A program made the translations under genes and the position numbers. Positions 12,863 through 19,245 of a DNA stretch of 64,000 bases are shown piece after piece (positions within the stretch are counted from its first letter, which is position 1; each line of letters opens with the position of its first letter). The notes below the pieces were generated by a model. It was not told the origin of the DNA. It saw only the letters and a program-made list of their open reading frames with translations, and did no database searches. This stretch comes from an uncultured Spirochaetota bacterium (lineage in GTDB: Bacteria > Spirochaetota > Spirochaetia > SZUA-6 > Fen-1364): the NCBI GenBank assembly GCA_963781885.1, contig CAWAHW010000002.1, positions 800,001 to 864,000 of the forward strand. Reading direction: 5' to 3'.

Positions 12863-13961
12863 GCTTTCCACTTTTCGACAGGAAGCGGCTTGTCTTCAGG
12901 CCCCTTTCGGAGCGCGCCAACAAGGTGCGCTTCCCGGAGAATGCCATTTCACCCGACGCCGTGCCCGCCGCGCTCTCAGTGAAAGCCGCGCAGACGCTCG
13001 CCGACACCGTGGAGAAGATCAGGAGTGCCCGTGCCGGGGGAAGACCCGTGATCTGCGCGTTCGGCGCGCACACGATCAAGAACGGATTGGGCCCCGTTCT
13101 CATCCGGCTGATCGAAGACGGGTGGATCACGCACCTGGCCACAAATGGCGCCGGTATCATCCACGACTGGGAGCTCGCCTTCCAGGGACGCACGAGCGAA
13201 GACGTGCGGGTGAATGTCGCGCGCGGCGAGTTCGGGATCTGGGAGGAAACGGGCCGGTACATCAACCTTGCGCTGCTTGTCGGCGCCGCGGAGGCAAAAG
13301 GATACGGCCAATCCATCGGCGCGCTGATCGCGACGCAGGGCCTCGACATACCGTCCCGTGCAGAGCTGCACCGGCAGGCCGCCGCGCTTCTGGACGCCGA
13401 TCCTGAAAGGGCGGCCGCTGCCGCGGACCTCCTTGCAGCGGTGCAGGATTTCGACATCCCGGCGGCCGGCTGGAGGTGCCGCATCCCTTCCGCGCGTCGA
13501 GCCCGCAGGCCGCGGCATACGCGCGGGGCGTGCCATTCACCGGCCACCCGATGATCGGCCACGACATCATTTACACGCATCCGCTCAACAGCGGCGCCGC
13601 CGTCGGCCGAACGGCGCTGCGGGATTTCCTCCTGTACGCCGAGGCGGTGAGCAGGATCGAGGGCGGGGTCTACCTTTCCGTGGGCTCGGCCGTCATGTCG
13701 CCCATGATATTCGAAAAATCCCTCTCCATGGCCCAGAACATCGCGCGCCAGGAGGGGAGGTCCATCACCACTCACTACATCCTGGTCGTCGATCTTGCCG
13801 AATCCGCCTGGGATTGGAAGAGGGACGGGGAGCCGCCGGCCGACAATCCCGCCTATTACCTGCGTTACGCCAAGAGCTTTGCGCGCATGGGCGGGACGCT
13901 GGCTTTCCTCCCGGCGGACAACAGGGATTTCTTTCTCTCGCTCCTGCACGCGCTGGCGTGA
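12859..13961 (+). CDS. Conserved hypothetical protein, deoxyhypusine-synthase-like fold (one base missing at about 13460)
   Basis: FGAHTIKNGLGP, HLATNGAGIIHDWE..FQG.TSEDV and LSVGSAVMSPMIFEKSLSMA resemble DHS-like NAD-binding proteins. The ATG overlaps the previous stop; adding one C in the run at 13458-13460 joins the two ORF halves. Confidence 0.55.
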
Positions 13962-14051
13962 CGGGCGGGCGCGCCGGGTCAGCAGTTCTGATATGATGTG
14001 CCCCCGTCAAGCTCTAAAAGCCTCCTTTTTTCTTTAGAACTCCTTCTGAAC

Positions 14052-14256
14052 ATCGAGGCCAACCCGAAGAGATGGAGAAGGGCATAACCGACGATCGACC
14101 AGTCTGATATGCGTGGATTGGTTACCGCAGGCCAATGTGATCGTCAGGAGCTTGCCTCCGTCTCATTACCAGGATCAGACCATAGTCTGCCTGCAGAACC
14201 GCTCGAGGATTCTCCGTTCGCCACGAACCTTCCCCATCCGTCCCGGTTGCCTCGAT
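14052..14256 (-). ncRNA. Predicted bridge/seek RNA of the IS element
   Basis: An imperfect closing stem of about 30 bp (14052-14081 with 14228-14256) encloses two stem-internal loop-stem modules. The loop strands match the target (AATGAGA; AGCGGTTCT) and the circle junction (CATATCAGAC). Confidence 0.8.
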
Positions 14257-14272
14257 TGCATACGCAGCCTCC

Positions 14273-15367
14273 TCAAGCCACCCGATCAACCATCGCGCCC
14301 CACAGGAACCCCGAGAGCTCTCGCGCCACCGCCGTCACCACGGTCTGAGAAGCTTTGCCGCGAAAAAGCAGACGCAGAAATTTCTTGTTTAGCCGCCTGC
14401 ACGCACGGTTGGCATAGCTGACCAAGGATGGAGAAAGACCCTCGCGTCGTTTCATCAACCGAGTGCTACTGGGATGGTAGCTGCGGTATTGCCAGGCGGC
14501 CTCCACCAGAAGTTTGCGCAGGTGGGAATTACCCGCCTTTGTGATTCCTCCCAAGCGCCTCTTGTTTCCGCTGGATCGCTCGGAGGGCACCAACCCCAAA
14601 AACGCCATGAATTGATCCGCACCTGCAAAGCGCCGAAAGTCCCCGATCTCCGAAACAAGCGACAAGGCGATCAGCGTCTCCACGCCCTTGAACGCCTTCA
14701 GCTTGGCTACAGGTTCGGCATAGCTTTTACGTGCCGCGATCTCTTCGATGCCCGCCTTGATCCGCCGACACTTCTCCTCCAGCTCGTCGACTTGGCAGCG
14801 GTACTCGGTGAGAGTCAACTGCTCCAGCGGATCCTCCAACTCAAGAGCCTGCAACCATGCTCGATGCGGCTGCGTCCATGTGGCTCCTTGTTCATAACGT
14901 ATCCGCCTCCGCAGAAGAAAACCCAGCACGCGCTGCTTGGCCTTGCGCAGATCGGACTTCATGTCCTCCAGCATTCGTAGATAGTCGCGAACCGCTTCGT
15001 CTTCCCGCGTGGGTACATGAACGGCACTCACATCCCCGCTCCGAAGTGCGCGAGCAAGCATCACAGCGTCCCTTCTATCGGTCTTTATGCGATCTCCCGG
15101 ACGATGTGGAATCTGAGACGGAGCCAGCACCGCACACGGCACACCCAGTTCCGTCAATTGTCGATACAGGGAATACCCTAGACATCCCGCCTCGTAGCAT
15201 GTCACCAGGTCCCCCGCGGACTGGAGCTTCTTGAAATAGGCCTGGATTACGCTCTTTTCATTGCGAATCACCGTCTCGGCCCTCGGCTTCTGATCGCGCC
15301 CGCTCAGGATCGCTATGGCGATCTTTTCTTTGTCGACGTCCATGCCAACGTAATGTACAATACCCAT
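14273..15367 (-). CDS. IS110-family DEDD recombinase/transposase (364 aa)
   Basis: RuvC-like DEDD residues in YVGMDV, CYEAG and KTDRRDA; C-terminal EIGDFRRF...AFLGLVPSERSSG...GITKAGNSHLRKLLVEAAW with the conserved serine; the ORF is intact. Confidence 0.95.
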   Translation of the reverse strand: MGIVHYVGMDVDKEKIAIAILSGRDQKPRAETVIRNEKSVIQAYFKKLQSAGDLVTCYEAGCLGYSLYRQLTELGVPCAVLAPSQIPHRPGDRIKTDRRDAVMLARALRSGDVSAVHVPTREDEAVRDYLRMLEDMKSDLRKAKQRVLGFLLRRRIRYEQGATWTQPHRAWLQALELEDPLEQLTLTEYRCQVDELEEKCRRIKAGIEEIAARKSYAEPVAKLKAFKGVETLIALSLVSEIGDFRRFAGADQFMAFLGLVPSERSSGNKRRLGGITKAGNSHLRKLLVEAAWQYRSYHPSSTRLMKRREGLSPSLVSYANRACRRLNKKFLRLLFRGKASQTVVTAVARELSGFLWGAMVDRVA

Positions 15368-15594
15368 GACTGCCCCCTTGTGCGTTGTTTGTGGCGTGCC
15401 GCATCGAGACGCCAATCTCATGATACGGCCGATCCACGTTGTAGCAACCACCTGGGGGCACTTCATATTGTCTCATTTTGGACCTTTCTGAGGTCTGGAA
15501 CGTATGCAGACTTGGAAAACGGCCTTTCATTAAGGGACAAAATGAGAACTGCATCATTCAGTCACCATACTGAGAATTGCTGGCGCCGGGTTTC

Positions 15595-15623
15595 TTGTCA
15601 CAACCGGCGATTTGCGATAGTAT
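15595..15623 (+). promoter_or_regulatory. Sigma70-type promoter of nifJ
   Basis: TTGTCA-17 nt-TAGTAT upstream of ATG 15670. Confidence 0.5.
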
Positions 15624-15669
15624 CCCTGTCAAAGTCCTCAACACCCTTTCACGAAAGAAGGTTTCACAT

Positions 15670-19241
<3,572 letters not shown>

Positions 19242-19245
<4 letters not shown>

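Follow-up and report, generated by a model that had tools for sequence, protein, structure and literature searches.

A probable guide RNA downstream of an IS1111-type transposase gene in an uncultured Spirochaetota bacterium

In a stretch of 64,000 nucleotides (nt) from an uncultured Spirochaetota bacterium (assembly GCA_963781885.1, contig CAWAHW010000002.1, positions 800,001 to 864,000), here called the window, we analyzed an insertion sequence (IS) of the IS1111 branch of the IS110 family, its transposase gene, and the non-coding region that follows the gene. The IS is apparently intact, and the 283-nt region 3' of its DEDD/Ser transposase gene very probably encodes a guide RNA of the seekRNA or bridge RNA kind, in which one module reads the target at the tip of a miniature inverted-repeat transposable element (MITE) and a second module probably reads the donor. 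A sequence-only reading of the window had proposed an IS110/IS1111 recombinase with a bridge- or seek-type RNA 3' of its gene that reads both target strands, and family models, covariation of the fold, and covariation of the guides with the flanks all bear this proposal out. Positions are those of the window, and features lie on the minus strand unless otherwise noted.

The IS1111-type element and its transposase

The IS occupies positions 13990 to 15471 (1482 bp, from ACAATATG to CATATC), with boundaries common to all copies, and is bordered on both sides by AG (15473-15472 and 13989-13988), where its relatives also put the core. The transposase gene (14273-15367) is an open reading frame (ORF) of 364 amino acids (aa) that starts from an ATG after a GGGGG run resembling a ribosome-binding site. 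Both domains of the IS110 family score above their curated cut-offs in the encoded protein, the N-terminal DEDD RuvC-like domain (PF01548, DEDD_Tnp_IS110; 50.3 bits, cut-off 29) and the C-terminal Transposase_20 domain (PF02371; 78.8 bits, cut-off 21.3), and the NCBIfam model NF033542, "IS110 family RNA-guided transposase," matches with 237.3 bits against a cut-off of 140. The alignment with the solved IS621 transposase (8wt6) is weak but significant (E = 1.1e-7); it places GMDVD, CYEA, KTDRRDA, and SSG opposite the matching stretches of IS621, and the Ser-Gly motif is present (the catalytic serine of IS621 is named S241; PMC11208158).

The features that separate IS1111-type from IS110-type elements, namely, subterminal inverted repeats, a downstream non-coding region, and the motif GL-P----S(t)G (PMC11187229, PMC11208160), are all found here. 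The left repeat, GAAGTGCCCCC (15454-15464), lies 7 nt inside the left end, and the right repeat, GGGGGCACATC (13995-14005), lies 5 nt inside the right end; they are 11 nt each and complementary at 10 of 11 positions, and IS1111 repeats are described as 7 to 17 bp long and located a few bases inside the ends (PMC11187229, PMC11208160). Non-coding DNA amounts to 283 nt downstream of the gene (14272-13990) versus 104 nt upstream (15471-15368), and the transposase motif GLVPSERSSG agrees with the IS1111 pattern. Across the window and relatives L010 to L039 (L numbers label individual loci), the left and right subterminal repeats vary together, occurring as GTGCCCCC, GTACCTCC, and AAACCTCC, each with its complement, and the 5 to 8 terminal bases outside them are constant. 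Protein identity to the transposases of IS4321 and IS5075, elements that reportedly insert in the terminal repeats of Tn21-family transposons, is about 26 to 27%.

The right subterminal repeat overlaps TTGACG (14010-14005), which is a possible -35 element of a promoter at the joined ends. TTGAC[A/G] is kept at the same place of the right end in relatives, and the distance of TTGACG from that end differs by 15 to 17 nt among them; the best -10-like hexamer of the left end, CAATAT, agrees with the consensus at 3 of 6 positions when read by eye. The transposase gene might also be transcribed from a sigma-70-like site (9 of 12 positions) that lies within the left end on the minus strand (15447-15420).

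Fold of the predicted downstream RNA and its conservation

In the region downstream of the gene, a closing stem (5' strand 14228-14256, 3' strand 14052-14081) surrounds two modules. Module 1 (14147-14215), the target-binding loop discussed below, is built of two stems, GGAG/CTCC and CCTC/GAGG, with a large internal loop and with an inner hairpin (14193-14170), and module 2 (14090-14145), the candidate donor-binding loop, has a GACGATC/GATCGTC stem and an inner TGCG.../...CGCA stem. The positions and strings that had been given for the stem, the modules, and the loops were recovered on the minus strand, including AGCGGTTCT at 14203-14195, AATGAGA at 14167-14161, and CATATCAGAC at 14111-14102. 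When the region was folded with RNAfold, the closing stem and the small hairpin CAGAC/GTCTG were present in both the minimum free energy and the centroid structures, though the folding energy itself is hardly distinguished from that of shuffled sequences (see below).

Relatives came from a scan of genome contigs (11 loci, 8 of them full-length at 59 to 67% protein identity and 3 weaker or partial at 41 to 51%) and from a metagenome scan for a pattern on the conserved junction between module 1 and module 2 (19 further loci); L010, L022, L023, and L028 are one locus. Four plasmid relatives were also taken. L045 proved informative; an IS630-family gene interrupts L046, and L047 and L048 are too different to align by eye. 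The closest plasmid-borne relative found has 46.5% protein identity.

Aligned over 23 distinct RNA regions with a mean column identity of 79%, the consensus structure comprises 41 pairs, and 96.3% of its cells are paired versus 40.3 to 50.8% when the partners are slid by 1 to 3 columns. Both sides change in 14 of the 41 pairs, and none of 500 shuffles reached the covariation score. Compensatory changes occur in 12 of the 16 pairs of the closing stem (helix 1), in one column pair of the outer stem of module 1 (46/116; CG in 13 sequences and GC in 10), and in one of the outer stem of module 2 (125/168; UA in 15 and CG in 7). Folded singly, 22 distinct sequences (21 relatives and the window) give the same plan of module 1, in which two short stems lead through a large internal loop to an inner hairpin that varies in sequence and keeps its pairing. 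The closing stem, about 30 bp, had been taken for an unusually long feature of this natural variant. It is indeed present and covarying, but because it is conserved across the lineage, with 12 of 16 pairs compensatory, we regard it as a feature of the IS lineage and not as a peculiarity of the window copy.

Target guides in module 1

The two strands of the module 1 internal loop can be read against the two strands of the insertion site. The 5' strand, AGCGGTTCT (14195-14203), would pair with the core AG plus AACTGCT to its right through eight Watson-Crick pairs and one G:T, making it the top-strand target guide, and the 3' strand, AATGAG(A) (14161-14167), repeats the core AG together with the 4 nt on its left and a single A after it, making it the bottom-strand target guide. 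The two strands are complementary to opposite target strands and overlap at the insertion point, as in seekRNAs, and, read 5' to 3', the top-strand match comes first, which is the order of IS1111 seekRNAs (PMC11187229). The core had been proposed as AGA, but right flanks of relatives with the same ends begin AGT, AGG, and AGC as well as AGA; since they vary after AG, the common core is AG. The third A seen in the window either opens the left end of the IS (ACAATATG) or belongs to this target by coincidence.

Comparison among relatives shows that these loop strands change with the flanks of the element. Over 23 distinct pairs of 5' strand and right flank, the non-core matches number 7 of 7 in 10 pairs, 6 of 7 in 9, 5 of 7 in 2, and 3 of 7 in 2, and the mean over 478 non-cognate pairs of loop and right flank is 3.43. 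With one representative per loop class, and with L033 and L036 dropped, the mean over 17 loop classes is 6.12 of 7 versus 3.78 +/- 0.32 under permutation, and none of 20,000 permutations was as high. L033, one of the two pairs with 3 of 7 matches, has a diverged module 1 in which the scoring script took the wrong stretch. For the 3' strand and the left flank, contiguous runs beyond the core average 2.19 nt over 16 distinct pairs versus 0.42 nt for non-cognate pairs, and 2.33 versus 0.63 nt over 9 loop classes, again with none of 20,000 permutations as high. Guide columns therefore follow the flanks on both sides, over 17 classes on the right and 9 on the left, which is the covariation expected from the original proposal.

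The window taken by itself is less telling. In a loose shuffle test, which accepted a same-sense match of at least 7 nt and a 9-nt pairing with G:T allowed anywhere in the 283 nt, 34 of 1,000 shuffles passed; in a strict test, which demanded both matches over the insertion point in the observed order and 15 to 60 nt apart, 5 of 20,000 did so. We consider the comparative covariation of guides and flanks, over such single-sequence tests of chance, to be the decisive support for the guide reading, and on this basis module 1 is best understood as the target-binding loop that reads both target strands.

Several observations weigh against a guide RNA in this region. The single-sequence fold is barely better than that of shuffled sequences (z = -1.63; 11 of 200 shuffles fold as well), and an Rfam scan of 13500-16000 (E <= 1) gave no matching family, its sole match being a weak sX7 at 15794-15893, which scores below the gathering threshold and does not overlap the element. 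With 364 aa, the transposase exceeds the 330 to 350 aa quoted for IS1111 transposases (PMC11187229). The bottom-strand guide is short, with 4 nt plus the core in the window and 0 to 3 nt in relatives, and the left-flank run is 0 in L012 and L029. In all 13 target copies, a T faces a G of the top-strand guide, which thus matches its own site imperfectly; natural G:T pairs also occur in the guides of the IS621 structures (PMC11208158). Finally, L010 is a real misfit, with 3 of 7 non-core matches between its right flank and the top-strand guide and with a left side that fits; this locus may be an off-target or half-matched insertion.

The region might instead be a mere structured 3' untranslated region or terminator, the target matches being due to chance and the site being chosen by the protein or by the DNA structure of the palindromic repeat. 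The weak folding energy and the loose shuffle test would both agree with this view, as would a target within an inverted-repeat element able to form hairpins. However, the loop strands follow the flanks over 17 and 9 loop classes, the test with fixed register is passed by few shuffles, no intrinsic terminator was detected on the minus strand across 13800-15700, and relatives that insert at sites other than this MITE repeat keep the same scaffold. Thus, we consider this explanation very improbable and retain the guide RNA.

The insertion site in a MITE family

The source genome (assembly 92.55% complete) holds nine copies of the IS, all inserted at the same point, after CAAAATGAG(A) and before (AG)AACTGCTG. 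Copies with these loops in unrelated sites would have spoken against the guide reading, and none of the nine is placed in such a way. The empty target deduced earlier by removing the IS, CAAAATGAGAACTGC, exists uninterrupted elsewhere in the same genome. In the window, the left target half with the core (CAAAATG plus AG) is at 15472-15480 and the core with the right target half (AG plus AACTGCTG) is at 13980-13989; the same halves are seen in copies and empty sites.

The target site is not a simple palindrome: a MITE of about 130 bp ends in a right terminal repeat, and the tip of this repeat is the site. This MITE family has 13 copies in the genome that are 72 to 100% alike, with terminal repeats CAGCA[A/G]TTCTCA and an internal third arm. 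The main part of the copy in the window lies left of the IS (15474-15582) and the remainder lies on the other side (13987-13980), so that the last bases of the right target half are the tip of the right terminal repeat. The left terminal repeat reads CAGCAATTCTCA (15582-15571), the internal arm reads GCAGTTCTCATTTTG (15552-15538), and a 9-bp direct repeat, ACCCGGCGC, surrounds the MITE (15591-15583 and 13979-13971). Most of the copies shown have direct repeats of 8 to 13 bp at their borders, different from copy to copy.

Among the 13 terminal arms of the family, 9 are occupied by the IS, 3 are intact and empty, and 1 (C6:136262) lacks 1 nt precisely where the IS would insert. The 13 internal arms have 15 nt in common with the target, but at position 9 of the right half they have A or G where the target has T, and none of them is occupied (9 of 13 versus 0 of 13; Fisher p = 4.6e-4). 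A single base, at guide position 9, appears to separate used from unused arms of the same repeat. This contrast fits a top-strand guide of 9 nt, and other differences in context between the arms may also play a part.

Seven of the nine IS copies are full-length, with 1481 bp between anchor motifs and 0 to 2 nt differences, all inside the gene; one copy runs into a stretch that lies outside the sequence analyzed, and another is shortened by about 595 bp from its 5' end. With these seven copies nearly identical, the reading frame open, and the Ser-Gly motif aligned, the earlier description of the element as intact fits, and the copy in the window is apparently intact. The IS is recently active and has spread recently in this genome by strictly site-specific insertion. 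A different account would have the nine copies as passive passengers, carried within the MITE by the MITE transposase instead of inserting separately under RNA guidance. Every copy does lie within a MITE, and each MITE has its own direct repeat of 8 to 13 bp. Nevertheless, the IS copies are 0 to 2 nt apart over 1481 bp and the MITE sequences around them are just 72 to 99% alike, four MITE copies have no IS, and the 92.55%-complete assembly yielded no full-length parent element with the MITE terminal repeats. Passive carriage is, in our view, scarcely credible, even less so than a structured untranslated region, and separate guided insertions are preferred.

Some details of single copies were also recorded. 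The shorter terminal arm belongs to an IS-free MITE copy (L043; G000:C6:136169-136292) that reads CAAAATGAGACTGCTG, with one A missing exactly at the insertion point, and could be an excision scar or a resistant variant. In the shortened IS copy (L009; G000:C2:775896-776873), the first few bases of the left end are kept and the sequence then jumps to about position 600 of the element, a deletion that takes away the start of the transposase gene. Contigs from four DNA runs over 13900-15600 gave no joints, circle junction, or empty-site form, and these contigs break at the repeat. Among the public sequencing runs listed for this sequence, none is of RNA.

Beyond the MITE lies an ORF on the plus strand (15577-19245, 1222 aa), with a likely ATG near 15668 that would start about 85 bp past the left end of the MITE. 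Its sequence motifs suggest a pyruvate:ferredoxin oxidoreductase-like protein. A promoter-like site is at 15595-15623 on the plus strand, and the MITE and IS are located just upstream of the promoter region of the ORF.

Module 2 and possible donor recognition

Module 2 had been read as a donor loop matching the circle junction, and this reading stands in part. Its 3' strand, CATATCAG (14111-14104), repeats the right IS end and the core without a mismatch. The heptamer ATATCAG within it, which equals the last five bases of the right end followed by the core, is invariant in all 23 sequences; the match stops exactly at the core, the next two bases varying (AC, TC, GG, AG), and ATATCAG has the same position in module 2 as the bottom-strand guide has in module 1. 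This parity of position, together with the match to right end and core, supports a role as donor guide. The other half of the earlier claim fares worse. Complementarity between the 5' strand, ACATTGGCC (14138-14130), and the left end is partial, with just ATTG in common and conserved, and in L045 (a Leptospira plasmid, 46% identical), whose left end is ACAAAATG, the loop has no matching change. The IS ends are the same in relatives down to 41 to 46% protein identity, and with the ends and the module 2 loop both invariant, covariation lends the donor guide no support. RNAalifold can also pair the two module 2 strands with each other (helix 5, which never varies).

A narrower alternative, with the RNA as a seekRNA in the strict sense, is that it guides target choice only: module 2 would be a protein-binding scaffold, the transposase would recognize the IS ends through the subterminal repeats, and ATATCAG would be conserved for another reason. 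In the study of IS1111 elements, a short seekRNA of 82 nt sufficed for movement, and its authors propose that end recognition may differ between families (PMC11187229). The co-varying subterminal repeats would fit one protein surface that recognizes both ends, and neither the ATTG shared by the 5' strand and the left end nor the unchanged loop of L045 is what a full donor guide would predict. Against this alternative, the heptamer is invariant in 23 of 23 sequences, ends exactly at the core, is followed by two variable bases, and is placed as the bottom-strand guide is in module 1. On balance, a donor guide in module 2 is our moderately favored assignment, and a guide for the target alone is a substantial possibility that we rate below an even chance.

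Two further ideas on module 2 and the loops were rejected. An ATTGG/CCAAT pseudoknot in module 2 leaves no linker between the strands and shows no compensatory changes. A "handshake" base after the core in each loop was compared by eye with the partner DNA and agreed in about 5 of 13 classes, no more than chance would give.

Sites of the relatives

A group of relatives (L013, L014, L015, L024 to L026, L030, L031, and L037 to L039) sits in imperfect palindromes that start with ...TAACATAGAG and end with ...CAACTGCAACGATTTGTTA. These sites resemble the integron attC-type targets that a review table gives for ISKpn4 and ISPst6, and they may be attC sites. In the metagenome relative L029, the bases just left of the IS read CATATCAG, equal to its own right end plus core and not to a match with the target loop, and the sequence farther upstream of the left junction is not IS-like. 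In L029, the IS may have inserted at a half-site resembling the donor.

Discussion

Mapping the transposase, the downstream RNA, the IS copies, and their targets onto one another, we found an IS110-family recombinase of the IS1111 type, a fold conserved by compensatory change, loop strands that covary with the flanks, and insertion at a single site of a MITE family. From these features and from published systems, a course of transposition can be proposed. The IS would be excised as a circle joining right end, AG, and left end, and the gene and RNA would be transcribed, possibly from a junction promoter that uses TTGACG at 14010-14005. The RNA, a predicted three-way junction in which a closing stem of about 30 bp surrounds two stem-loop modules, would then assemble with the transposase. 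In module 1, the 5' strand (AGCGGUUCU) would pair with the top strand over the core AG and 7 nt to the right, and the 3' strand (AAUGAG) would pair with the bottom strand over 4 nt to the left and the core. Module 2 probably holds the donor, that is, the joined IS ends, with AUAUCAG matching the right end and core; the remaining donor recognition may come from the protein and the subterminal repeats. Strand exchange would occur at AG. The transcription of the RNA, its binding by the protein, the circle, the junction promoter, and the part played by module 2 are predicted steps in this scheme.

A broader proposal is that this lineage has a distinct bridge RNA architecture, namely, a three-way junction with a stem of about 30 bp that reads at length only 9 nt of the target top strand and 7 nt of the donor bottom strand, with at most 4 nt read on each of the other strands and the rest supplied by repeats and protein. 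At least 13 natural guides would be carried on a nearly invariant scaffold, with guide position 9 separating the arms of the repeat, and the lineage could then serve as a series of programmable recombinases. We put this forward tentatively and think it doubtful as a whole.

RNA-guided IS110/IS1111 recombinases are under development for genome editing, and most work has been done on enzymes of the IS110 group. To this field, the element adds a well-delimited and recently active example of the IS1111 type, as well as a natural series of relatives with different target guides on the same scaffold. It also offers a built-in contrast of specificity within one genome, where two arms share 15 nt and only the arm that matches guide position 9 is used, and it is an example of such an element filling most copies of a MITE.

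Compared with known systems, the element is closest in plan to the IS1111 elements described with seekRNAs. As in ISEc11, ISKpn4, ISPa11, and ISPst6, a DEDD gene is followed by a long non-coding region, and there are subterminal inverted repeats, a top-strand match 5' of the bottom-strand match, and close relatives with a conserved stem that are naturally retargeted (PMC11187229). It differs from them in that it is known from sequence alone, in its longer transposase (364 versus 330 to 350 aa; PMC11187229), and in an RNA structure of 205 nt, compared with 148 to 172 nt for the published long forms of seekRNAs in the review table.

The likeness to the IS621 bridge RNA is more general (PMC11208160, PMC11208158): two strands per loop read a 2-nt core and its surroundings on both DNA strands, the two guides differ in length and include natural G:T pairs, and both systems have two modules per RNA and the Ser-Gly motif. 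In contrast to IS621 (PMC11208160), the RNA lies 3' instead of 5' of the gene and its guide order is reversed, the core is AG instead of CT, and the 9-nt long guide reads the top strand instead of the bottom strand. The modules of the window RNA are arranged in a three-way junction closed by a long stem, which fits the "multi-loop" note for IS1111 elements, and the similarity between the two proteins is weak, as given above.

For the choice of target, the nearest published parallel is IS1111 in the QMITE2 repeat of Coxiella (PMC5896051), where a fixed point in the repeat of another mobile element also serves as the site and copies also build up in a small non-autonomous repeat with direct repeats of 7 to 11 nt. 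The present case differs in the IS, the host, and the MITE family (CAGCA[A/G]TTCTCA, about 130 bp, 13 copies), of which 9 of 13 sites are filled. IS4321 and IS5075 in Tn21-family terminal repeats are reportedly a further case of a fixed point in the repeat of another mobile element. Downstream guide RNAs of IS1111 elements, their reversed guide order, and natural retargeting are already in print (PMC11187229, PMC11208160), as is insertion into the repeats of mobile elements (PMC5896051). Within a limited literature search on the lineage, the new details are the lineage itself, its AG core, a closing stem that is long and covaries, the target in a MITE, and the single base that sets the two arms of this MITE apart. 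The published picture of IS1111 elements is left unchanged, and the element described here is a clean and ordinary instance of it.

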